A DNA stretch of 13,173 bases from a virus (IMGVR_UViG_638341082_000004), one strand, 5' to 3'. Positions 1 to 13,173 are shown, counted from the stretch's first letter. Numbers and translations: made by a program. Notes: generated by a model from the sequence alone, not told the origin.

Positions 1-1227
1 CTACGATAACCGCGCATTCAACATGGCTATCTGTTCGTCGTTCATGTCATCAATCCACATACCGTAAATTTCATACACCATCTGCGCAGTTTCATGCCCC
101 ATTTGGCTGGCTATAAATGCCGGGTTCGCTCCTGCCGTCAACAGCCAGCAGGCAAAAGTATGCCGCGTATGGTACGGATTACGGCGGCGAATACCAGCAC
201 GTTTTACTGCTGCATTCCACCTTGCCCCCAAACTGCTTACCGAGTAATAAGGTTTTTGTTTTCCGTTACACACCCTGGGCATGAAAACAAAATGCAGTTT
301 TTGCTTTTCGGTTCTGCCGTACTCCCGATGATAAAAGGTGATTTCGCTTTTGCGATGATGCCCGGTCAGTTTGTATTGCTCCTTCAGTGCTTCAAGAGCA
401 GGCTGCAGTAGTGTTACTGTTCGGATCCCGGCATTTGTTTTTGGGGGACCGAACATATCAAGTATCGTCAGGTTTCTTCTGACATTCACTATTCCCTTTT
501 CGAGATCCACATCCTCCCACGCCAGAGCTGCCAGTTCCCCGTGACGAAGTCCTGAGTAAACGGCAAATTTCCACAAGTTCTGGCTCTGTCCTTTTTCACT
601 TTCCATTAATGCATTGAATTCTGTTTTAGATAACGGATCAGGCTTTATTCTGTTTCGCTGTAATTTTTTTACTCCTTCAAATGGTTTGGTTGATATAAAT
701 CCCGACTGATACGCAAAACGCAATAGCGAACAGAGCAGGGCGATATAGTTATCAACTGTGCGCACGGTTCTTCCTTTTTTGTTGGATCTTGGATTATCCA
801 GGTAAAGCGTTTCTCCATGCAGCAGTTCATTCCGGTAGTTTAAGATATCGCTATAACGAATATGTGATATCGGGGTACTTTCACAAATTATTATTCTGAG
901 TGTTTTTAATTGTGATTTCGTTTTCTTCATTGTGTTTGTTGTTAACTCTGTCTCTTTAATTTTTGTCCAGATATCACAAAGCTCTCCGAACGTTTTTATG
1001 ACTCTCGTTGTCACCATTTTTGCCCCAGTGCTGGACTGGGGAAAACGTCTTAAATACTCAAATTCACCGGAGTTTATTTCATGAACTATCAGCGCTCTTA
1101 AATTTCCGGCCTTTTTAATATTACTGTTTGTAATCTCCCAGCCTTTTAATGTTTCCCGACATCGTTTTCCTCGAAACATGAACCAGATGCGAATGTATCT
1201 ACCTCTAATCTCGGGTAATGACTCCAA
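1..1227 (-). CDS. intR: Phage tyrosine integrase (Rac IntR-like); 5' end disrupted and fused to the IS1 right inverted repeat
   Basis: 408-aa minus-strand ORF with a tyrosine-recombinase C-terminal region (HTRHTFACWLL...GHET...MVYEIYG). The stop codon is bases 1-3. The first about 5 codons (TTG start, MESLP) are encoded by IS1 terminal sequence at 1214-1227, so the native N-terminus and promoter are missing. Protein matches Rac IntR from memory. Confidence 0.88.
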   Translation of the reverse strand: MESLPEIRGRYIRIWFMFRGKRCRETLKGWEITNSNIKKAGNLRALIVHEINSGEFEYLRRFPQSSTGAKMVTTRVIKTFGELCDIWTKIKETELTTNTMKKTKSQLKTLRIIICESTPISHIRYSDILNYRNELLHGETLYLDNPRSNKKGRTVRTVDNYIALLCSLLRFAYQSGFISTKPFEGVKKLQRNRIKPDPLSKTEFNALMESEKGQSQNLWKFAVYSGLRHGELAALAWEDVDLEKGIVNVRRNLTILDMFGPPKTNAGIRTVTLLQPALEALKEQYKLTGHHRKSEITFYHREYGRTEKQKLHFVFMPRVCNGKQKPYYSVSSLGARWNAAVKRAGIRRRNPYHTRHTFACWLLTAGANPAFIASQMGHETAQMVYEIYGMWIDDMNDEQIAMLNARLS

Positions 1228-1236
1228 CTTATTGAT
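1214..1236. repeat. IS1 right terminal inverted repeat (IRR)
   Basis: Sequence GGTAATGACTCCAACTTATTGAT read in the window. Confidence 0.85.
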
Positions 1237-1732
1237 AGTGTTTTATGTTCAGATAATGCCCGATGACTTTGTCATGCAGCTCCACCGATTTTGAGAACGA
1301 CAGCGACTTCCGTCCCAGCCGTGCCAGGTGCTGCCTCAGATTCAGGTTATGCCGCTCAATTCGCTGCGTATATCGCTTGCTGATTACGTGCAGCTTTCCC
1401 TTCAGGCGGGATTCATACAGCGGCCAGCCATCCGTCATCCATATCACCACGTCAAAGGGTGACAGCAGGCTCATAAGACGCCCCAGCGTCGCCATAGTGC
1501 GTTCACCGAATACGTGCGCAACAACCGTCTTCCGGAGCCTGTCATACGCGTAAAACAGCCAGCGCTGGCGCGATTTAGCCCCGACATAGCCCCACTGTTC
1601 GTCCATTTCCGCGCAGACGATGACGTCACTGCCCGGCTGTATGCGCGAGGTTACCGACTGCGGCCTGAGTTTTTTAAGTGACGTAAAATCGTGTTGAGGC
1701 CAACGCCCATAATGCGGGCAGTTGCCCGGCAT
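1229..1732 (-). CDS. insB: IS1 transposase InsB frame (expressed as InsAB' by -1 frameshift)
   Basis: 167-aa [28 protein letters not shown]... recognised as IS1 InsB. The A6C slippery motif TTAAAAAAC is present on the minus strand at about 1669-1677 in the insA/insB overlap. Confidence 0.88.
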
Positions 1733-1926
1733 CCAACGCCATTCATGGCCATATCAATGATTTTCTGGTGCGTACCGGGTTGAGAAGCGGTGTAAGTGAA
1801 CTGCAGTTGCCATGTTTTACGGCAGTGAGAGCAGAGATAGCGCTGATGTCCGGCGGTGCTTTTGCCGTTACGCACCACCCCGTCAGTAGCTGAACAGGAG
1901 GGACAGCTGATAGAAACAGAAGCCAC
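1651..1926 (-). CDS. insA: IS1 InsA (DNA-binding transposition inhibitor; N-terminal part of the InsAB' transposase)
   Basis: 91-aa [46 protein letters not shown]... recognised as IS1 InsA with its zinc-finger CxxC...CxxC. Confidence 0.88.
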
Positions 1927-1954
1927 TGGAGCACCTCAAAAACACCATCATACA

Positions 1955-2200
1955 CTAAATCAGTAAGTTGGCAGCATCACCTACTTTCTGCTCTCTGGAA
2001 ACGCCTGCTTCTTTTTTACCTGAGAGCATTTTTTCGCATTCTGATTTCGTTAGTTTAGATTTTGAATATCTTGTCCAGTTAGTAGGAGTGCCACCTTCCT
2101 TTTCAATAGTGGCGGTAATTTTATACATGAACACCTCCATTATTATTTCCAGTGGTTCGTTTATTCCATCTTTCGAGTGCTTCTTTTTCACTTCCACCAT
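1955..2200 (-). pseudogene. ydaC: ydaC-like small prophage gene, 3' end truncated by IS1 (last ~8 codons and stop are IS1-derived)
   Basis: Minus-strand ORF (...MYKITATIEKEGGTPTNWTRYSKSKLTKSECEKMLSGKKEAGVSREQKVG) runs into the IS1 IRL at 1981. Position between ralR and int matches ydaC in Rac. Real start is probably an internal ATG (2140 or 2128). Identity is by synteny and partial recall only. Confidence 0.45.
1959..1981. repeat. IS1 left terminal inverted repeat (IRL)
   Basis: Reverse complement of GGTGATGCTGCCAACTTACTGAT read in the window. Confidence 0.85.
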
Positions 2201-2315
2201 AACCGGTTCGGGATTCGCATCCGTTACACTTCGCTCGGTAATATCCTGAAATGGCTTTCACCGTTACTGATGGACAACCACAAAATGGACATGGTTTAAC
2301 ATTGTCATATCTCAT
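2121..2315 (-). CDS. ralR: Restriction alleviation protein Lar/RalR
   Basis: 64-aa product MRYDNVKPCPFCGCPSVTVKAISGYYRAKCNGCESRTGYGGSEKEALERWNKRTTGNNNGGVHV starting at the internal ATG of track ORF 2121..2354. Matches the Lar family zinc-ribbon protein of Rac. Confidence 0.85.
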   Translation of the reverse strand: MRYDNVKPCPFCGCPSVTVKAISGYYRAKCNGCESRTGYGGSEKEALERWNKRTTGNNNGGVHV

Positions 2316-2371
2316 AATTTTTCTCATAAAAAATATTTCAAGTTGGCGGTGCATTACACCGCCAGGCTGAA

Positions 2372-3181
2372 TTATTCCTCTGAATTATCGATTACACTGT
2401 ATTCCCCGGTTAATACAGAGGAATCTGCAGGATCGATTGTCAGTGGTTCCTTTTCATCCATTGATACTGCACGCTGGATCTCAATTGATACGGGCAGATA
2501 TTTGAACAGGCGACGAATAGCCGTTTTCTTTGCCATTTCTTCCCAGTGAGTTACCCACGGCCCGTTATTACCAGCTTTACTCAGGCTGCGCACCAGCTCA
2601 ATCTGTTTGCGCGTCATAACTTCAAACTGAGTACCTCCGTCTTTCAGTCTTGCGACAGCATAGACGTGGGTAACCGGGGCATCTTCGTTTTCTCCCGGGC
2701 GGTGTATTAACTTTTCATCAAGGCCAAATTCGAAGCTAAACTCGTCACCTTCACGGACAACACGGGCTGACAGGCTGGCGATTTGACCAGAACGGCGAGC
2801 CAGATCAATCATGCCGCGATAGCCAATGATTAGCTGAACGTTCTTTTTACCGCTCTTTTCGTTTTTATTACCAAAAGGCAGTAAATATGCATGACCGAGG
2901 GCGCTACCTGGCTCAAGTCCGAGCTGTGAACACTGTACGATCGCACTGACAAAACTCATAGTGTCACAGTTTCCTAACGCCGGAACTTTACGAATTTCTG
3001 TAGTGGCGATACGGATCATACGTTCAGCCGTCATATGGCGTGGAAGAGCTGCTGCCAGTTGCTCTTTCATTGATGGCTGGTTAATAAAACTAATCACGTC
3101 GCTATTTTTAACTGCTGCTGGTGCACGGTTTCCCTGAGTTTTTTGCAGATCGGCTTTTGCGATTGGTGGTTGCTTAGTCAT
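2372..3181 (-). CDS. recT: Recombinase RecT (single-strand annealing protein)
   Basis: 269-aa product beginning [21 protein letters not shown]... from the ATG at 3181 within track ORF 2372..3238. Overlaps the recE stop by 8 nt. Recognised as Rac RecT. Confidence 0.92.
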
Positions 3182-5774
3182 TTGCATATTCCTTAGCCCA
3201 GCGGGGCAGTGATAATGTCTTAATAGCTGGCCATTCATCGGTATTCAGGCAGTCAGACAGGGTTCGCAGATTGCGGTGATATTCCTGTTGACCTGCCAGT
3301 TTTGCTTCTTCGCCCATCATGAAAATTTCAACCGGATAACGTCCGCATTCAATAGTTGTGCTGGCAACCAGAAAAACGAAAGTTGGCTGCACTCCAAACT
3401 GTGCTTCATAACCGTCACTGTAGAATGCATCCTGAACGTGATAGCGGTAGTCGTAATAAGCGGTTTTGAATCGTTGAATATCCGCCGTAGTTTTCACGTC
3501 CATGATCCAGTGAAATTCAGGGATAATTTTGTCCGGACGGCACCGACACAAAATTCCTGTTTCAGGATCTTCCCAGTAAATTGATGATTCAGCGTGTCCG
3601 GCGCTTTCAACAAGCCATTGCCCCAGCGGCAAAGCCATAACGCTTTGATACATGAGTTCAATTTTCCGGCCTTCTTCCGCAGTGATAACCGTTTTTCCTG
3701 TGCTTGCGCATTCCATCAGAAACGCTTTCTCTTCTTCTTTTCCGGCGTTTGTACGGCGGTTAAATTCAGGTGCTACGATAAAGCGGTTACTGAATTCTTC
3801 CGGTTCAAGTACCCGGCAGTGGAAAGCAGTTCCTAAATCGAGCGTTTTTGTCTTTGTGGTGTCCACGGGGGCATTTTTACGCCACAAATATAGTGCCGGA
3901 GTATCAGCAATGTCATCGAGCTGAGACTTACTGATACCGGGACCCGCGTGGTAATTCTCATTCGAAATTCCGTAATAAATACCTGGCTCTATGTCTTCTA
4001 CGATTACGGGATCTGCGACTTCGCCAGTTTCATCACTGCAATCGTGATGCGGATCGCTGCCAGCATTCTCATTGTGCGGATGTTCAGCGCCTTCCATTTC
4101 CTCCGGATCATTTTCCTTAGCTTCAACCTGACTCTCTTCATCGAATGTTTCCTGGTATGTTGCGTCGCCCATCACCGCACCACAGTCAGGGCAGTTATCC
4201 CCGCCAGTCTGGCCGCAGGCATTGCAGGCTATTTCCGGTTCCTGTTGCACTACTGGCTCAGGTTGATTCATATCTGGGCTGGTTTTTTCCGTTTCTGGCT
4301 GGTTCTGGTACACACAATCGCGAGTCTGGATCCCCTTTACCCATTTCGGATCGTTCGGGTCGCTAATTCCGTCAACAAATTCACCACGTGATGCAGCAAG
4401 CAATTTATCGGCATCGACAGGATTTTTTGATGGAATGTTTTTCCGGGCTTCATGGAGTTCTGCCCGCAGTTCCTGATATTTCGCATCAACAGAATTTACC
4501 TGTGACTGAGCATCCAGCGGCTGCGTGTCCTGATGATGTTCAGTTGCGTCCGGTTCCATTGTTTCAGCCTCTCCCTGTTCAACTGCCGTTGTTCCAGATG
4601 GTTGCGGTTTTTCTTCATCATCCTGTTTTCCTTCTTCTGTTACTCGCTGCGGCATCGGGGCAGAGGAGCGACCGCAGGCAATATCCACGATTTCCGGATC
4701 AGGGTTGGCATGATCGGTTTCAGTCAGTACTTTGTTCAGATATTCAGTGACGTGCGCGGGGATGACCTCGATCCCAATTGGTGCTTCTTTTACGGACGCA
4801 ACCACGATGGCGCGGGAATAATCCAGCCCGCCAGGCATGGTGATGAATTTGTCGCGGAAAACAGAAAAGGGCGGTTTATTTTCAGCGATAATTTCCTCAA
4901 TGCGTTTAGCGTGTGCCGGATGAAGGTTATAGATGTCCAGATCCATTGAACGGGCCAGTACGCCAGTGGCTACGTCGCGCGCCAGTGACGTCAGATCGTG
5001 TACGAAACCTTCGCCGCGATCGGTGAGGTTTCCGCCGCCAGCATTAGCACCGGAAGCCGTGCGAGTGATGTGTGAAACACGATTACCCTTCATCCACTCT
5101 TTTGTCAGCAGTCCTCGATCGGTGTAGTCAGCGTTCAGGTATGCTTCGAAAAAAGCAGTTATCAGTCCCAGGTTTGAATTACCAGGATTAGGGAAAACTT
5201 TGTCAGTGTCACGAACCAGTTTGTGGAGTTCGCGAATTTCCAGCGGGTCGAGCAGGCTGGTTTTGTGGGAAACAGCCAGGGCAGTAACAGCCGGTAGTTC
5301 TTCAGCCCGAGCAATGTGTAATGCCTGGAGTCCGTCGCGTGAAACGTGCGTTACCGGTTTTTCGCTGCCGTGTTGAGCAAGCCAACGAATGGGCAGTTCC
5401 TGGCCAGAAATTGGGATTAGCATATTCTCCTCAATCTCAGTCATGTCTTCGCCGTTGACGTTGGTATTGCCTTGATAATGAGCGTTGTCTGGTGCTGCTC
5501 CCGGTTTTAGTTCCCATGTCATGGAGTCTTTGCTGAGTTGATAGCGTTCACTCCAGGTAAAATCGATCTCACCTTCAGCGGGCAGGTCATTAACGACAGG
5601 AAAATTCGTGGCAACAGCTTTAAAATAGCTGCTCAGTTTTTTACCTGACTTAACGATCAGGTAGTCCAGAGTGGCACAGGTCGATTCAAAATCGTTGCTT
5701 GCCCACAGGACGACGTCAGGTTCACCGGATGATTTTTTCGCTTTCCGTAACAGGAAGAGTGGTTTTGTGCTCAT
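3174..5774 (-). CDS. recE: Exodeoxyribonuclease VIII RecE
   Basis: 866-aa [27 protein letters not shown]...WAKEYAND, full length for RecE, with an acidic central region and C-terminal nuclease domain. SD GAGGT upstream. Confidence 0.93.
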
Positions 5775-5845
5775 TGTTTTTTAACCTCAACTCAGATTAA
5801 AATTCGTTTTGTTCAGTGAATGATCTTGCCGGATACACACTGTTC

Positions 5846-5870
5846 ATAGCCTGCGCCATACGCAGGCTAT
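5846..5870. promoter_or_regulatory. Perfect 10-bp-arm hairpin in the racC-recE intergenic region
   Basis: ATAGCCTGCG-ccata-CGCAGGCTAT read directly, 5 nt after the racC stop and about 70 nt before the recE start. Confidence 0.35.
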
Positions 5871-5875
5871 TTCTT

Positions 5876-6151
5876 TCAGATTTCACCTTTTAATTTCATT
5901 GCAATTAGAGTTGCCAGAAATTCGGCTTTTTTTTCTGCGGGCAGATTCTTTCCGATATGCACCAGGCACATTTTTTTGACACCTTCATCAAGTGTTTTTA
6001 CGTTGCCTGATGGACCATCGATATCAACCACAGTGAATGGGGTTTCTTTATTTTCTGTTTTAATTACGTAGCCAATGCGCTTTCCTTCCAGATTCACCTC
6101 GTGAACAATGTCATCGGTAGTTACAACAGTGGCTTCATAATTGGTAATCAT
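5876..6151 (-). CDS. racC: Rac prophage protein RacC
   Basis: 91-aa product MITNYEATVVTTDDIVHEVNLEGKRIGYVIKTENKETPF... from the internal ATG at 6151, which has a strong SD (AGGAG, 5-nt spacing). The longer 6199 start lacks an SD. Confidence 0.85.
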   Translation of the reverse strand: MITNYEATVVTTDDIVHEVNLEGKRIGYVIKTENKETPFTVVDIDGPSGNVKTLDEGVKKMCLVHIGKNLPAEKKAEFLATLIAMKLKGEI

Positions 6152-6225
6152 GTTTTTCTCCTTAATTAAGGTTGAGCGAATACCTGCCATTTCTGGCATA
6201 AATTCAGTTTCGAATAGTCAATTAA

Positions 6226-6396
6226 TTAAAGTTCATGTGCCATCTGGTCTTTTTCGGCACAAGCTTCACTGCAATATTTTCTCGGTTCGTCTTTTGATAA
6301 AATCCCGTGCATGAAGTGAAGCATTCTTTCAATAGCTTTGCTTTCTTCAACGTCTTTTTTGCAAAGGTGGTAAGCACATTTTATTTTCTTAGTCAT
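6226..6396 (-). CDS. ydaE: Small Cys-rich protein YdaE (putative metal-binding)
   Basis: Hand-translated 56-aa ORF, absent from the ORF track (below cutoff): [56 protein letters not shown]. Start ATG overlaps the kilR stop (ATGA). Has CxxxxC and CxxxC pairs. Confidence 0.75.
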   Translation of the reverse strand: MTKKIKCAYHLCKKDVEESKAIERMLHFMHGILSKDEPRKYCSEACAEKDQMAHEL

Positions 6397-6617
6397 CACC
6401 ATGACTCCGCCTTTACAGGTAAACCATCACGACCGAGGAAGACTTTAATCATGCGGTCAGTAATGCATGTTTTTGTGGTCAGGTTACGAATATATAGTTT
6501 TCGCTTTTTAATATTGTTTGCCGAGGCAATATATGTCCGGCCTTCATGAAGAACATAATCGCCAGGAGTCACACACTGACGTGGTATTTCATCAGTTCCG
6601 AAGTGATGTGCAATCAT
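6396..6617 (-). CDS. kilR: Cell-division inhibitor KilR
   Basis: 73-aa product [46 protein letters not shown]... from the internal ATG at 6617 with SD GGAG upstream. Recognised as Rac KilR. Confidence 0.85.
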
Positions 6618-7058
6618 AATTATCTCCATTTTTACAAATGAACTTTGTTGATGCGGTGCCTGGTGCCTCCAGGTGACTGCAACCAGTTAACAATTACAGT
6701 CGGCTTTCCCACCCAAACCAATAAGGACTAACATGACTTTTAACTGTGCCACGTGCGCTTAGCCGCATTCACCGCATCACAAAATTCACTTTAAAAAGGG
6801 CGGACATCAGCCGAACTTCAAGAAAAAAACTGATGCCGCCAGGACTACACACAGCAATGTCGTTATTTACAACCGGAGGCGCACTCCCACCATTTAAATT
6901 TAACAGACAAGACCGACTCTTTATGGATATCGGAAATGCGCCTTCGTGTTGTGCCCGGTTTTATTTCACCACCTCCGGACTTCGGTGGTCTCGGCTATAC
7001 CCCTACAGCGAGAGCTTGTGTTAACATTTCAATACCCTTACAGTTGAGAGTTATTGAT

Positions 7059-7547
7059 ATGTTGGATGTATTTACTCCATTGTTGAAACTTTTTGCTAAC
7101 GAGCCACTCGAAAGACTTATGTATACGATTATCATTTTTGGTCTCACTCTCTGGCTGATACCGAAAGAGTTTACTGCCGCATTCAATGCTTATACTGAAA
7201 TACCTTGGCTCTTTCAGATTATCGTTTTTGCCTTTTCTTTCGTGGTCGCCATTTCCTTCTCAAGATTGCGAGCACATATTCAAAAGCATTATTCATTACT
7301 ACCAGAGCAACGAGTATTGCTTCGTTTATCTGAGAAAGAAATCGCTGTATTTAAAGATTTCCTTAAAACAGGAAATCTTATTATCACTTCTCCTTGCCGT
7401 AACCCGGTTATGAAAAAATTAGAACGGAAGGGCATCATTCAACATCAGAGTGATAGCGCAAACTGTTCTTATTATCTCGTCACCGAAAAATACTCCCATT
7501 TTATGAAGTTATTCTGGAACAGCAGGAGTAGACGTTTTAATCGTTAG
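7059..7547 (+). CDS. sieB: Superinfection exclusion protein B
   Basis: 162-aa product MLDVFTPLLKLFANEPLERLMYTIIIFGLTLWLIP... with predicted N-terminal membrane helices, starting at the internal ATG 7059 of track ORF 6936..7547. Confidence 0.85.
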   Translation: MLDVFTPLLKLFANEPLERLMYTIIIFGLTLWLIPKEFTAAFNAYTEIPWLFQIIVFAFSFVVAISFSRLRAHIQKHYSLLPEQRVLLRLSEKEIAVFKDFLKTGNLIITSPCRNPVMKKLERKGIIQHQSDSANCSYYLVTEKYSHFMKLFWNSRSRRFNR

Positions 7548-7699
7548 CTTACTGTGTGCTTCTCCAACCATCGGCGCGCACCAGTTTCGGTTTTAAATGT
7601 TTTGCTTTTGGTATACGTCATGGCAGTGAACGTTCCATCCTGGTTGGGGAACACGCCGCACACCAGGGATTCGTTGTTGCCGAGGTCGATTTTTTGCAT
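7544..7699 (-). CDS. ydaF: Small prophage protein YdaF
   Basis: Hand-translated 51-aa ORF not in the track: MQKIDLGNNESLVCGVFPNQDGTFTAMTYTKSKTFKTETGARRWLEKHTVS. Its 3' end overlaps the convergent sieB stop by 4 nt. Confidence 0.7.
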   Translation of the reverse strand: MQKIDLGNNESLVCGVFPNQDGTFTAMTYTKSKTFKTETGARRWLEKHTVS

Positions 7700-7709
7700 T
7701 TTGCGAATC

Positions 7710-7844
7710 TCACATCTTGTTGCTACGTATAGCGACTTCTGCCTGCCAGAGATCCCAGTCGTTGCTGCGTAAAGCCTGCACAGCCTGGTTGTAAGTGATA
7801 CCGCAACAATCCATCAAATACTGAACTACTTCGTAATGCACCAT
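7710..7844 (-). CDS. ydaG: Small prophage protein YdaG
   Basis: Hand-translated 44-aa ORF not in the track: MVHYEVVQYLMDCCGITYNQAVQALRSNDWDLWQAEVAIRSNKM. Confidence 0.7.
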   Translation of the reverse strand: MVHYEVVQYLMDCCGITYNQAVQALRSNDWDLWQAEVAIRSNKM

Positions 7845-7989
7845 CTTATCTATCCCCTTAACGCCGGGTGGCGGAACTAACTGCTGCACTGCAAAATTTG
7901 AATCCCGCCGTCATGTTCATACGCCTCGGGCTGGCTACTTAACCCCTGACCACTGCCTGGTAACTCGAAGTATTGCCCGGCGTTCTGTG

Positions 7990-8060
7990 GGGCGGGGTGG
8001 GTTGGTAGGTATATAATGTACTTTGTGTTCATCATTGTAAAGTACTTTAAGTACATTTTA
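7990..8060 (-). promoter_or_regulatory. Candidate leftward early promoter/operator (PL/OL-like) upstream of ydaG
   Basis: AT-rich segment with palindrome GTACTTTAAGTAC (8042-8054) and ATGTACT motifs. On the minus strand TTACAA-17bp-ATTATA resembles -35/-10. Inference only. Confidence 0.35.
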
Positions 8061-8132
8061 TGTATAAAAAAAATGAGACGGGATAAAGTGAAGCACAAAC
8101 CCGGAGGGGGACGCTACCGGATTTATGCTGGT

Positions 8133-8552
8133 TTAAGAGGCTTTTTGTTTTTTCTTTCGTGCTAACTCTTCGTAAATTGCATTGTACTTCTGTTTTTTCT
8201 CCTCAAGAGTTTTTAAAAGTTCATCTGTCTCACTGTCAGGGAGCTCGTCCAGAAGGTCAATGATGATTTTTTGTCTTGGATTTAACTCCTGATAGAAACG
8301 TATCTGTCCACTTTCTTCTGTATCCTCTCCCAAAAGATAGGTTGGTGTTGTTCCAATGAGTGTTGCTAATTCCCTTAATTTCTCTCGGCGAGGAATTGTT
8401 TCACCATTAAACCATTTGCTAACCGCTTTTGGTGTTAATTTCATTCGACGGGCAATTTCTGCCTGCCTTCCATGTTGTTCATAACCAGCGTTTTCACAGG
8501 CTAGCGCAAGCCTACTGGCGAACTCTTTACGCGCTTTATCTTCATGAACCAT
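8133..8552 (-). CDS. racR: Rac prophage repressor RacR (CI-like HTH regulator)
   Basis: 139-aa ORF MVHEDKARKEFASRLALACENAGYEQHGRQAEIARRMKLTPKAVSKWFNGETIPRREKL... with an HTH (Xre-type) N-terminal domain, divergent from ydaS. Confidence 0.85.
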   Translation of the reverse strand: MVHEDKARKEFASRLALACENAGYEQHGRQAEIARRMKLTPKAVSKWFNGETIPRREKLRELATLIGTTPTYLLGEDTEESGQIRFYQELNPRQKIIIDLLDELPDSETDELLKTLEEKKQKYNAIYEELARKKKQKAS

Positions 8553-8631
8553 AAGTTCAATGATATTCGCTCTTGAATGTACTGTCAGTTCTGTTATAGC
8601 ATGTACTCAAAGTTCACATTGTGAGGGTGAT
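8553..8631. promoter_or_regulatory. Divergent racR/ydaS promoter-operator region (OR-like)
   Basis: 79-bp gap between divergent starts. TTGAAT (8573-8578) then TATAGC 16 bp later for ydaS; CTGACA-17bp-TATCAT on the minus strand for racR. ATGTACT occurs twice (8577-8583, 8601-8607). Confidence 0.5.
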
Positions 8632-8886
8632 ATGAACCAGAAAACACTTGAAGATGTAATCAAAACTGTTCGCGTTTCTGTTGTGGCCGACGTTTGTGGT
8701 GTCAGCCAAAGAGCAATCTACAAATGGATGGATAACGGAAAATTGCCTCGCACAGAATATACCGGCGAAACAAATTACGCTGAAAAAATCGCTCATGCAT
8801 CAAACGGATTATTTTCTGCCGATGCAATTTTAACTATTGGCAGAAATAAAACTACTACGAAAAAGCTGATGGGAGTTGATTCATGA
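8632..8886 (+). CDS. ydaS: Cro-like HTH protein YdaS
   Basis: 84-aa product MNQKTLEDVIKTVRVSVVADVCGVSQRAIYKWMDNGKLP... from ATG 8632 with SD GAGGG 6 nt upstream. The longer track start at 8560 would leave only 7 bp to the divergent racR. Confidence 0.8.
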   Translation: MNQKTLEDVIKTVRVSVVADVCGVSQRAIYKWMDNGKLPRTEYTGETNYAEKIAHASNGLFSADAILTIGRNKTTTKKLMGVDS

Positions 8887-9305
8887 AAATCAAGCATGAG
8901 CACATCGAATCAGTGTTGTTAGCCCTGGCAGCCGAAAAAGGGCAGGCGTGGGTCGCTAACGCAATTACTGAAGAATATCTGCGCCAGGGGGGCGGCGAAT
9001 TGCCCCTGGTACCAGGCAAGGACTGGAACAATCAGCAGAATATCTATCATCGTTGGTTGAAAGGTGAAACGAATGCGCAAAGGGAAAAAATTCAGAAACT
9101 GATCCCTGCGGTTCTGGCAATTCTTCCTCGCGAGCTGCGTCACCGACTCTGCATCTTCGATACCCTGGAACGCCGTGCATTACTGGCGGCACAGGATGCA
9201 CTGAGTACGGCAATTGATGCGCATGATGATGCAGTCCAGGCCGTTTACCGTAAAGCACATTTCAGCGGCGGCGGTTCTCCTAGCGATTCTGTCGTAGTGC
9301 ATTGA
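8883..9305 (+). CDS. ydaT: Rac prophage protein YdaT (CII-like/toxic when derepressed)
   Basis: 140-aa ORF MKIKHEHIESVLLALAAEKGQAWVANAITEEYLRQGG... with start overlapping the ydaS stop (ATGA). Confidence 0.85.
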   Translation: MKIKHEHIESVLLALAAEKGQAWVANAITEEYLRQGGGELPLVPGKDWNNQQNIYHRWLKGETNAQREKIQKLIPAVLAILPRELRHRLCIFDTLERRALLAAQDALSTAIDAHDDAVQAVYRKAHFSGGGSPSDSVVVH

Positions 9306-9318
9306 TTGAAATTAATCG

Positions 9319-9340
9319 TACCGAACTGTTTTGTTCGGTA
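9319..9340. other. Perfect 8-bp-arm hairpin between ydaT and ydaU
   Basis: TACCGAAC-tgtttt-GTTCGGTA read directly; no downstream U-tract. Confidence 0.4.
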
Positions 9341-9350
9341 TCAGTTAAAT

Positions 9351-9369
9351 GTAACGCTGCGAGCGTTAC
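9351..9369. repeat. Iteron-like palindrome GTAACGCT-gcg-AGCGTTAC (copy 1)
   Basis: Perfect 8-bp arms with 3-bp spacer, 14 bp upstream of the ydaU start. Confidence 0.55.
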
Positions 9370-9382
9370 AAGGTGAAAACAA

Positions 9383-10171
9383 ATGGCTTCAAACTGGATA
9401 AAGCTCGAAGTTATTACGCCGGATAAGCCGGAAATATTCAGGCTTGCTGAGATTCTGAATATTGATCCAGATGCCGCATTAGGGAAAGTCATTCGCTTCT
9501 GGGCATGGGCGGATCAACAAATGATAGACGGTAACGCAGAGTGTAACGCTCGCGGCGTTACAAAAAGTGCAATAGATCGCATCACTTTTATGGCTGGTTT
9601 TGCTGATGCGTTAATTCAGGTTGGATGGCTGGTCGAAACTAATGGTGTGTTGTCGCTTCCTAACTTTGAGCGCCATAACGGGAAAAGCTCTAAAAAACGG
9701 GCGGTTACAAACGAGAGAGTAACAAAAATACGAGAACTGAAACGAAAAGGTAACGCTGCCAGCGTTACAAAAACGGATCAAAAAGCGTTACCAGAGGAAG
9801 AGAAAGAGGAAGATATAAATACTTATCTCCCCCTAAATCCCCCTCGCCAAAAACGAGCGTCTAAAAAATTCGAACCGGAGGCTATCGAGCTGCCTGACTG
9901 GTTGCCGGAAACACTCTGGCATGAGTGGGTTCAGTTCAGGCAGGCATTGCGAAAACCGATTCGAACGGAGCAGGGCGCTAACGGGGCGATACGGGAGCTG
10001 GAAAAATTCCGCCAGCAGGGTTTTTCACCTGAGCAGGTGATTCGACACAGCATCGCCAACGAATACCAGGGCTTGTTCGCGCCGAAAGGTGTTCGACCTG
10101 AGACGTTACTCCGACAGGTTAACACCGTCTCGTTACCGGATAGTGCGATCCCGCCAGGCTTCAGGGGGTAA
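9383..10171 (+). CDS. ydaU: Putative replication initiation protein YdaU (lambda O-like position)
   Basis: 262-aa ORF MASNWIKLEVITPDKPEIFRLAEILNIDPDAALGKVIRFWAWADQQ... with SD AGGTG 7 nt upstream. It precedes the DnaC-like ydaV and contains iteron-like repeats. Confidence 0.85.
   Translation: MASNWIKLEVITPDKPEIFRLAEILNIDPDAALGKVIRFWAWADQQMIDGNAECNARGVTKSAIDRITFMAGFADALIQVGWLVETNGVLSLPNFERHNGKSSKKRAVTNERVTKIRELKRKGNAASVTKTDQKALPEEEKEEDINTYLPLNPPRQKRASKKFEPEAIELPDWLPETLWHEWVQFRQALRKPIRTEQGANGAIRELEKFRQQGFSPEQVIRHSIANEYQGLFAPKGVRPETLLRQVNTVSLPDSAIPPGFRG
9543..9561. repeat. Iteron-like palindrome GTAACGCT-cgc-GGCGTTAC (copy 2)
   Basis: Same motif as 9351-9369 with one arm mismatch, inside ydaU. 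Confidence 0.5.
9750..9768. repeat. Iteron-like palindrome GTAACGCT-gcc-AGCGTTAC (copy 3)
   Basis: Perfect arms, inside ydaU. Preceded by half-sites GGTTACAAA (9702-9710) and GTAACAAAAA (9719-9728) in an A-rich stretch. Confidence 0.5.
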
Positions 10172-10946: not shown

Positions 10947-11708
10947 ATGGAGACTGTTTTTGACGCACTGAAAGCAATGGGGAAAGCTACGTCGGTAGAA
11001 CTGGCTGCGCGACTTGATATCAGTCGTGAAGAAGTGCTGAACGAGCTGTGGGAACTGAAAAAGGCTGGCTTCGTTGATAAAAGCGTATACACCTGGCGCG
11101 TGGCTGATAACAACGTTCAGCAGGAACAGCCAGAGCAGGCAGAACTGCCGGAAGAAACCACCACGGCAACAGTCGCAAAAATTTCGGAGTGCGATTTAAC
11201 TGCGACGATTGAACAACGTGGCCCACAAACGGCGGATGAACTGGCTACGTTTTTCGGCATCACATCACGCAAAGTGGCTTCAACGCTGGCAATGGCAATC
11301 AATAAAGGTCGTCTGATTCGCGTTAATCAGAACGGTAAATTTCGTTACTGCATGCCGGGCGATAATTTACCAGCAGAGCCGAAAGCTGCATCGGTAGCGG
11401 AAACTGATGGTAAAGCCTTTCCTCAGCCAGCCGGTGTTGCGTTACCAGTACAGGAAGCGGCAACACAGGAAGATATTAAAACAGAAACTGTGGCGGACAT
11501 TGTGCAGTCGCTGCCATCGTTTACTGAAACGCAAGCGGATGACCTGGTTTTACCATCGCTGCATATGGCAAACCGCGAACTGCGTCGGGCGAAAAATCAT
11601 GTCCAGAAGTGGGAGCGAGTCTGCGCCGCGCTGCGGGAGCTGAACAAGCACCGGGATATTGTCCGACAGATTGTCGATTCCTCCAGTCGTATTGTGTCGG
11701 AAAAGTGA
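10947..11708 (+). CDS. ydaW: YdaW-like protein with two tandem winged-helix DNA-binding repeats
   Basis: Track ORF 10896..11708; probable start is ATG 10947 ([45 protein letters not shown]...). A second similar repeat follows ([33 protein letters not shown]). Assigned by synteny and partial recall. Confidence 0.65.
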
Positions 11709-11723
11709 TTGCCGGAGGCGCTT

Positions 11724-12146
11724 ATGGCAAAAGTTTTTACACAGGAAGAGCGGGAAAAAATTAAAGGGCAGGTTGTTGAGCTAGTACGCCGGAGTGGACG
11801 TGAGACGTTACGGCAACTGGAAGTCAAGACAGATGCGACAAGATATCTGATGAGCGTTCTCGCAAGAGAGCTGGTTGCCAGCGGCGATGTATACAACTCT
11901 GGTTACGGGTTATTCCCGTCTGAACAGGCGCGTAAGGACTGGCAAAATGCCCGTAAAAAGCTCTCAAGGGCAAAGCTGAAGAAACCATCTGCGGTTGATC
12001 CGGACCTTATCTGGTCATTACCTGACGGAGAAATACGTCGCTACGACAGGCGTCAGAACATAATCTGTCGCGAGTGCCGGAAGAGTGAAGTTATGCAGCG
12101 CATATTGTCGTTTTATCAGGGTGATGTTCGGTATTTATTGAAGTGA
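11724..12146 (+). CDS. Hypothetical prophage protein (unknown function)
   Basis: Track ORF 11709..12146 (TTG); probable start is ATG 11724 (MAKVFTQEEREKIKGQVVELVRR...), 140 aa. Composition matches the phage module. Not recognised. Confidence 0.55.
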   Translation: MAKVFTQEEREKIKGQVVELVRRSGRETLRQLEVKTDATRYLMSVLARELVASGDVYNSGYGLFPSEQARKDWQNARKKLSRAKLKKPSAVDPDLIWSLPDGEIRRYDRRQNIICRECRKSEVMQRILSFYQGDVRYLLK

Positions 12147-12214
12147 CGAGATTAAAGTGCATTAGTTCAGATGCAAATTGACATTTTGTGGCACAGGGTA
12201 GAGCTAGCGTGGTT

Positions 12215-12246
12215 GTCCGCTTTGTGCCAGAGGCGGACGTTTTGGG
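12215..12246 (+). terminator. Candidate intrinsic terminator after the replication-module operon
   Basis: GTCCGC-tttgtgccagag-GCGGAC followed by GTTTTGGGTAT. Short stem and modest T-tract, so weak. Confidence 0.3.
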
Positions 12247-12276
12247 TATATTAACCTTACACTTCATGGATACTAT

Positions 12277-12305
12277 TCAACATCTCTTTTAAATTATTGT
12301 AAAAT
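12277..12305 (+). promoter_or_regulatory. Candidate sigma70 promoter for the AT-rich cargo gene
   Basis: TCAACA (12277-12282), 17-bp spacer, TAAAAT (12300-12305) preceded by TG. The 10-mer ATTGTAAAAT recurs at 12296-12305 and 12340-12349. Confidence 0.3.
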
Positions 12306-12534
12306 CCGACGCATTCATTGATTTACGGAAACTTGGCGTATTGTAAAATTGAACATCAAGATTTACACTATGAAGGTTAGGATAGTTTGTTAAAAGCATA
12401 ATGCATGAGGCCTGAATCAGTTTATTAAAGAAGTTTTGTATGAATTAAGTGGGCTAAAAATATAATTTTGAAGTATTTATGACTACATGATTCATATTCA
12501 ATTATTTGAGTTAAATATTTTTCATGGAGAAATT

Positions 12535-13173
12535 ATGGACGTTAGAATATTCTCATTAGAATCTCAGAAGAGTAAAATTTATGATAGAAGAACTAGAAAA
12601 TATTTTGAAGAGGTTTATAAGAGCTATGCTAATGGTTGTTACCGTTCTGCTACCGTGATGCTATGGTCAGTAGTTGTATGTGATATTATTTTTAAGCTCC
12701 AAGAACTGCGAGATGTTCATAACGATGCTGTTGCGGAAAAGATATTATTAGAAATTGAAGCACTACAAAACGATGATCCTTACTCTCCTAAATGGGAAAA
12801 AGAGCTTATTAAAAGAGTTTTTGAAAGAACTCAATTATTAGACACTGCTTCAAACCATAAAGTTTTACTTATTCAAAAACACAGGCATTTATCTGCCCAT
12901 CCCGTAATAAGTGACGAAGATACGTTATTCGAGCCAACACAGGAAATGATTAGAAGTGACATTAGGAATAGTATAGAAGTAATATTAAGCAAGCCGCCAT
13001 TTATGTCTCAAAAAATACTTTCCACATTTGTTGCAGATCTAGAAAAGGTAAAGGACCTATTCCCTTCCGATAACGCGCTAAAAAAATACTTAGATGTTAA
13101 ATATTTCAAATCTTTAAACAAGGAAGTATTAGTTAAGATATTCAAGGGTTGTGGAAGTTTTCGTTTAGATCTG
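12535..13173 (+). CDS. 5' part of an unrecognised AT-rich cargo ORF (at least 213 codons, no stop in window); possible HEPN-like R-x4-H protein
   Basis: ATG 12535 with SD GGAGA 5 nt upstream; open to the last base. Hand translation: [60 protein letters not shown]...[19 protein letters not shown]...[10 protein letters not shown]. Markedly AT-rich by eye; not in the ORF track because it has no stop. Confidence 0.6.

Follow-up and report, generated by a model that had tools for sequence, protein, structure and literature searches.

The locus considered here raises a question about the history of a prophage edge: how did a complete copy of the insertion sequence IS1 come to lie exactly between the 5' end of an integrase gene and the 3' end of a ydaC-like gene, and what has the prophage lost at this place? 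The stretch of DNA analyzed (13,173 nt, IMGVR_UViG_638341082_000004; hereafter, the window) agrees with the draft contig AAMK02000005.1 (L009) of E. coli 101-1 without a single mismatch over the 12,128 nt available. In this contig, ttcA, the Rac attachment gene, directly follows int; the adjacency of ttcA and int there and in relatives, together with the ralR-recT-recE-racC-kilR-sieB synteny at 99.8% identity to K-12, identifies the prophage as Rac. The attR site falls outside the window.

Compared with the Rac prophage of K-12 (intR-xisR-rcbA/ralA-ralR-recT-recE and onward), the window has the same insertion beside ttcA, and its left arm, from intR to ydaG, is 99.8–99.9% identical. The left-arm genes ralR, recT, recE, racC, ydaE, kilR, sieB and ydaF all have open frames that hardly differ from those of K-12. 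The window differs from K-12 Rac in lacking 381 bp (xisR and the ends of two genes), in carrying an IS1, and in its immunity/early-right module (8007-9798) and the DNA past 11397, which are not K-12-like. The earlier note on this DNA, made from its sequence alone, held the recombination, immunity and replication modules to be intact. As open frames they are, but the repressor/replication region at 8007-9798 represents an allele other than the K-12 type.

A complete IS1 without target-site duplication

Positions 1214-1981 are occupied by a complete IS1A-like element of 768 bp, the only IS1 in the window. Its transposase genes lie on the minus strand, so that the right inverted repeat (IRR) abuts intR and the left inverted repeat (IRL) abuts rcbA (ydaC); the earlier note had likewise placed a full IS1 exactly between these two genes. 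The element displays the family characters of IS1, namely, a length of ~768 bp and imperfect inverted repeats of ~23 bp that begin with GGT; the two repeats of this copy are 78% complementary. The IRR, distal to insB, is at 1214-1236 on the plus strand (GGTAATGACTCCAACTTATTGAT), and the IRL, which contains the insA promoter, is at 1959-1981 on the minus strand; both are 23-bp imperfect repeats. Both transposase frames are open on the minus strand: insA (1651-1926) encodes 91 aa from a GTG start, and the insB' frame (1229-1732) encodes 167 aa and is linked to insA through a -1 frameshift, for which the A6C motif typical of IS1, TTAAAAAACTC, is present at 1667-1677 on the minus strand. The known insA promoter within the IRL was recovered by the promoter scan at 1974-1947 (minus strand). 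PGAP labels the identical IS1 copy of strain FORC_082 "IS1A family transposase, programmed frameshift" and treats it as intact.

The 9 nt on each side of the element, which together with it make up the interval 1205-1990 assigned to the feature by the earlier note, are unrelated. The left 9-mer, CTAATCTCG (1205-1213), is native intR sequence, and this junction is identical in L007, L008 and L020 (the last being GCA_002109875.1), while the right 9-mer, TACTTTCTG (1982-1990), is native rcbA sequence. A comparison of the two IS1 flanks revealed no direct repeat of at least 8 nt, and the 8-9 bp target-site duplication (TSD) customary for the family is therefore missing from this copy, as had been claimed. 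Such an absence is expected for the product of a deletion or recombination and does not affect membership in the IS1 family.

The missing 381 bp

To define the missing bases, the window was aligned, as the earlier note had proposed, with the uninterrupted Rac prophage of K-12 MG1655 (L004, corresponding to NC_000913.3 1411000-1426000). Window positions 1-1213 correspond to L004 1001-2213 with 99.9% identity, and positions 1982-8007 correspond to L004 2595-8619 with 99.8% identity (12 substitutions), the right 9-mer being L004 2595-2603. Both flanks retain the order and strand found in K-12, and L004 2214-2594, exactly 381 bp, has no counterpart in the window. Colinear flanks from which the intervening DNA has disappeared relative to an uninterrupted reference are the arrangement by which an adjacent deletion is recognized.

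The 381 bp comprise nt 1-23 of intR, all 216 nt of xisR, the spacer of 78 nt between xisR and rcbA, and nt 148-210 of rcbA, that is, its last 63 nt (20 codons and the stop codon). The earlier statements that the two genes are truncated at these ends and that the excisionase gene is absent thus proved correct: the order in K-12 is intR-xisR-rcbA, the K-12 copy of xisR (ydaQ; Pfam DUF1233) lies wholly within the missing segment, and the window contains no xisR. Consequently, the DUF1233 excisionase gene that in Rac stands directly upstream of intR is not found in that position here. The same 381 bp also include nt 1-38 of ralA and everything directly upstream of this gene.

Truncated integrase gene and prophage excision

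The truncated intR occupies 1-1213 on the minus strand, with its stop codon at 1-3, and lacks its first 23 nt (the start codon and 7 2/3 codons in all). At the protein level, the native N terminus MSKLPTGV is gone, and from residue 9 on the sequence matches K-12 IntR without a difference. Both Pfam domains, Arm-DNA-bind_2 (PF12167) and Phage_integrase, are detectable, the former spanning residues 5-69 of native IntR.

Where translation of the remaining frame might begin can be considered for two candidate codons. The earlier note placed the start at a TTG within the end of IS1, and a TTG in the IRR (1225-1227, minus strand) is indeed the first ATG, GTG or TTG of the open int frame and, as was also noted, has no Shine-Dalgarno sequence. 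It is situated 1 nt past the insB' stop codon, with an in-frame TAA 6 codons upstream. A protein initiated there would be a fusion of 408 aa with 5 IS1-encoded residues and would lack profile positions 1-4 of the arm domain. However, in FORC_082 and B-JRPT-4119, which have this junction too, PGAP sets the start at an internal ATG (1177-1179, minus strand; native Met20). This alternative candidate would yield 392 aa and would lack arm-domain profile positions 1-16, a quarter of the arm-binding domain. In either case, what is annotated as "intR" in these strains is a gene without its native start. Counts of the 392-aa Int were also considered as a stand-in for the left junction and rejected, since gene callers often select Met20 of IntR even when xisR is intact.

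XisR is the experimentally defined excisionase of Rac, and its deletion in K-12 makes excision 9.4-fold rarer in exponential phase and 13.6-fold rarer in stationary phase, a reduction rather than an abolition; RpoS induces Rac excision through xisR (PMC4632033). Because xisR is gone and intR, without a start codon, now abuts IS1 instead of xisR, efficient excision of the prophage is probably not to be expected, and its earlier description as "locked" is a reasonable one. For E. coli 101-1, the prediction is that Rac excision would be absent or very rare.

A RalA remnant beside an intact ralR

The truncation of rcbA created a short fusion gene. The 57-aa ORF (rcbA'/ydaC', 1955-2128, minus strand) consists of 49 native residues, encoded by 1982-2128, and 8 residues encoded by IS1 (GDAANLLI); it matches positions 1-48 of 61 of the DUF1187 profile, and exactly this protein is deposited for E. 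coli 101-1 (EDX40065.1 / WP_001301107.1).

The deletion reaches a further gene. In K-12, ralA is antisense to rcbA (L004 2557-2735, plus strand) and encodes the sRNA antitoxin of the toxin RalR. In the window only a remnant is left at 1982-2122 on the plus strand, corresponding to nt 39-179 of 179, the upstream DNA and the 5' stem-loop having been deleted. The covariance model Rfam RF02694 scores 225.1 bits in K-12 and 170.4 bits in the window, where it barely reaches the gathering score of 170; real ralA sequence is lacking for the first 38 positions of the model, and only nt 39-179 are genuine. In PMC4041452, these first 38 nt are described as a 5' stem-loop at the mapped transcription start that aids sRNA stability. 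The promoter of RalA would presumably also have lain within the deleted upstream DNA.

Other parts of the antitoxin gene persist. The 16-nt seed, complementary to ralR mRNA, is retained at 2006-2021 (plus strand); its pairing with 2178-2193 involves 14 of the 16 positions, 11 of them contiguous, and its location fits the wording of PMC4041452 ("62 nt downstream of the RalA 5' end"). The terminator of RalA is likewise retained in the window. The adjacent toxin gene ralR (2121-2315, minus strand) is intact, and its 64-aa product is 100% identical to K-12 RalR. Neither the promoter scan nor direct reading revealed a sigma70-type promoter directed out of the IRL toward the RalA remnant, and the TTGGCA at 1968-1973 is not accompanied by a -10 hexamer at the proper spacing. 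This damage to the RalA gene beside an intact ralR escaped the earlier note and is mildly unexpected. E. coli 101-1 is accordingly predicted to pair a RalR toxin gene with a damaged antitoxin gene.

Junctions in related genomes

Do the two junctions of the IS1 occur elsewhere, and do they occur together? The IRR-side junction (intR nt 23 joined to IS1), accompanied by a 100% identical IS1, was also found in the complete genomes of FORC_082 and B-JRPT-4119 and in the draft genome GCA_002109875.1. The right junction is different in each strain. It lies at window 1982 (K-12 L004 2595) in E. coli 101-1, at window 12358 in FORC_082, where 10,376 bp more are missing, at L008 9000 in GCA_002109875.1 and at L008 9583 in B-JRPT-4119. 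The four deletions thus form a nested series in which each encloses the preceding one and the left junction is common to all, so that one IS junction is invariant and the other is variable among related isolates. The relatedness is evident from int and the host flank: over 6.2-7.2 kb, FORC_082, GCA_002109875.1 and B-JRPT-4119 differ from 101-1 by 1-2 substitutions, compared with 6-67 in other E. coli. Such close similarity makes a single ancestral insertion the parsimonious reading.

The right junction of the window is represented independently in a short-read assembly, the Logan contig SRR9418184_1158, which passes the same rcbA breakpoint and ends 26 nt into the IRL. Both junctions of the window together were found in none of 5,426 complete E. 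coli genomes, and the exact window junctions had zero matches in JGI metagenome contigs and GTDB species representatives. A precursor was sought with a chimeric query composed of the IRL end of IS1, CTAATCTCG and native intR/xisR sequence, which returned only two-piece, non-contiguous matches; a simple insertion of IS1 between nt 23 and 24 of intR, flanked by a 9-bp duplication, was therefore not found in any of the 5,426 complete E. coli genomes. The mirror query likewise revealed no IS1 with a duplication at the rcbA site in complete genomes. Strain MB51, at one point a candidate carrier of the right junction, was rejected as an artifact of joined BLAST pieces; its actual arrangement is ralR-IS1-dgcM'.

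Origin of the deletion

We consider the best explanation of this locus, and probably the correct one, to be an insertion of IS1 into intR followed by an adjacent deletion from its IRL end to rcbA. According to this account, IS1 would have transposed into codon 8 of intR in an E. coli ancestor shared by 101-1, FORC_082, GCA_002109875.1 and B-JRPT-4119, which form a small lineage. The IRL end would then have driven an adjacent deletion as IS1 transposed replicatively to a nearby site on the same molecule, and in 101-1 this deletion would have extended only as far as rcbA codon 49. IS1 would have been kept together with its junction to intR, at the cost of the 381 bp that separated its other end from the new target. 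The surviving element would lack direct repeats, since every target duplication loses its second copy along with the deleted DNA. A fixed junction combined with nested variable junctions is what IS1-promoted adjacent deletion classically leaves behind and, judged from the four sequences compared, favors this course of events. IS1/Tn9 is presented as the textbook producer of such deletions, which leave a surviving element without direct repeats, in PMC9330008, which cites Turlan & Chandler 1995 (EMBO J 14:5410).

The earlier note offered inter-IS1 recombination next to adjacent deletion, and these two are the right pair of candidates, between which the nested series speaks for adjacent deletion. 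In the former, RecA-dependent homologous recombination between two direct copies of IS1, one in intR codon 8 and the other in rcbA codon 49, would have deleted one IS1 together with the 381 bp. This process yields the exact product observed, one IS1 with unrelated 9-mers and colinear flanks; the lineage is rich in IS1, with 30-40 copies in these strains (30-39 IS1 sites per genome in FORC_082 and B-JRPT-4119), and the left arm of Rac has been struck by IS1 repeatedly in other strains. However, a second insertion in the same orientation 381 bp away is required, the whole series demands three further insertions of this kind, each later recombined away, and no complete genome has a duplication-flanked IS1 at either the rcbA or the intR site; we regard recombination as unlikely, albeit still a credible competitor. 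That IS1 entered the DNA at a double-strand break, or removed the 381 bp in the very act of transposing, so that a simple-insertion precursor never existed, strikes us as improbable. New IS insertions accompanied by a deletion and devoid of a TSD have been described (PMC11708052), and the failure to find a TSD-bearing precursor among complete genomes agrees with such a one-step event. Against it, the moving right junction and fixed left junction of the three other strains call for later deletions from the IS1 end anyway, and every such case in the E. coli long-term evolution experiment (LTEE) was traced to a pre-existing IS (PMC11708052).

Could the arrangement instead be an artifact of assembly, the 101-1 draft having merged two IS1 copies so that the junctions are not joined through one element? 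Both junctions do occur together only in one Sanger-era draft WGS contig, that of 101-1, and in no complete genome. Nevertheless, the left junction is found independently in two complete genomes and the right one in the Logan contig, only 381 bp separate the colinear flanks in the reference, and relatives have real deletions at this IS1. We consider such an artifact very improbable, and had there been two copies, the interruption of intR and rcbA would stand all the same. The least probable reading, which can be dismissed almost entirely, is that int and ydaC are naturally adjacent in a variant of Rac and that IS1 is a simple insertion between them. We found no evidence in its support, and it is refuted by flanks 99.8-99.9% identical to K-12, where xisR stands between them, by an intR without a start codon and an rcbA without its last 21 codons including the stop, and by the lack of a TSD. 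Under the preferred account of insertion into intR and subsequent adjacent deletion, the allele of the window may be either a stage on the way to the larger deletions or a branch of its own.

Recurrent erosion of Rac by IS1

A similar arrangement is present in E. coli B19695 (NZ_CP196120.1), in which truncated intR, IS1 in the same orientation and truncated rcbA follow each other, xisR is deleted and no TSD is present. In contrast to the window, the IS1 of B19695 is an isoform 96.5% identical to the window copy, the endpoints correspond to window positions 1117 and 2056, and 551 bp are lost. The RalA seed has also disappeared, only the last 67 nt of ralA remaining, and the adjacent ralR is annotated as intact. 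Since both the IS1 isoform and the endpoints are different, the loss of xisR in B19695, as read from these sequences, is a separate event in an unrelated strain. This independent recurrence of xisR loss by IS1 is mildly unexpected.

In other strains, IS1 is located after xisR, after ralR or inside recT, in each case with the DNA beyond it lost or rearranged. IS1 is a habitual eroder of Rac.

It might further be speculated, with considerable doubt, that the loss of xisR through IS1 is not only recurrent but possibly selected, fixing Rac in the chromosome with recET, sieB, kil and immunity open, as a route of prophage domestication, and stripping the RalR DNase of RalA. If so, either ralR would be silent at native levels or the IS1 end would transcribe the RalA remnant.

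Comparison with known IS-mediated deletions

The events described here belong to known biology, IS1-promoted adjacent deletion and prophage decay, and leave the current view of IS1, Rac and prophage decay unchanged. Their value is that of a clear case from nature: insertion sequences first fix an excisable prophage as a chromosomal island and afterward wear it down step by step. Adjacent deletions promoted by IS1 were reportedly described by Reif and Saedler in 1975 in the gal region. The Rac series resembles such adjacent (replicative) deletions in that IS1 is kept, one junction is constant and the other moves, direct repeats are absent, and the lengths are nested. The difference is that the deletions known from elsewhere arose under laboratory selection, in gal or on plasmids, whereas here a natural series would be represented by four genomes.

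The LTEE offers a second parallel: for IS150, an insertion was followed by a small adjacent deletion and then by its extension, with no TSD left (PMC11708052). The Rac series is similar in the succession of insertion, small deletion and extended deletion and in the absence of a TSD, but the LTEE deletions involve IS150, a member of the IS3 family, and are resolved in time, whereas the Rac series involves IS1 and is not time-resolved.

The RalA antitoxin locus next to IS1

In the window, the deletion has removed the upstream region and the first 38 nt, comprising the 5' stem-loop, of the RalA sRNA gene. Within window positions 1982-2315, the 16-nt seed of this antitoxin RNA (2006-2021) is retained and its terminator is still present. 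The Rfam RalA score is 170.4 bits versus 225.1 bits for the K-12 locus. The toxin gene ralR (2121-2315) is intact.

In E. coli B19695 (NZ_CP196120.1), the 5' end of int, xisR and the 3' end of rcbA are likewise replaced by IS1 without a target duplication. This copy (3219-3986 of the extracted segment L006) is 96.5% identical to that of the window and represents an independent event. In B19695, ralA is reduced to its last 67 nt and lacks the seed, and the adjoining ralR is annotated as intact; thus, ralR appears to be tolerated in strains that have no RalA.

Other IS1 copies and the annotation of IntR

In E. coli MB51 (NZ_CP073946.1), IS1 (3417-4184 of the extracted segment L003) directly follows ralR, and beyond it lies a 5'-truncated dgcM, a host gene whose usual place is on the opposite side of ttcA, the Rac attachment gene. 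The order ralR-IS1-dgcM' represents an inversion or rearrangement that is associated with IS1 and involves the left arm of Rac. In the draft assembly GCA_002109875.1 (ADKA01000019.1), the IS1 next to int, at the intR junction shared with the window, measures 723 bp, with ~ 20 bp in place of an internal ~ 64-bp segment of the window copy. The difference is either a genuine deletion within the element or a product of misassembly.

In various E. coli contigs (L011-L019, int at 6001-7179), gene-calling software often places the start of IntR at Met20 (392 aa) despite an intact xisR and an intact native ATG. Therefore, counts of 392-aa integrases in databases are no sign of truncation.

Right end and immunity module

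K-12 Rac has no counterpart to window positions 11397-13173, which contain DUF1627 and DUF977 ORFs followed by an AT-rich stretch. An ORF starting in this stretch at 12535 continues past the window end; its complete form in strain FORC_082 is a 406-aa protein (WP_244577158.1) annotated as "hypothetical protein" and without a match in Pfam. The FORC_082 IS1 deletion endpoint corresponds to window position 12358, just upstream of this ORF.

The immunity and early-right module (8007-9798) differs in type from the K-12 racR-ydaS-ydaT. It includes a 139-aa HTH_3 repressor on the minus strand (8133-8552), a divergent 108-aa HTH ORF (8560-8886) and a YdaT-like ORF (8883-9305) with ~ 92% nucleotide identity to K-12. 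The position taken in K-12 Rac by the DUF1376 protein YdaU is occupied in the window by a 262-aa ORF (9383-10171) with no Pfam match.
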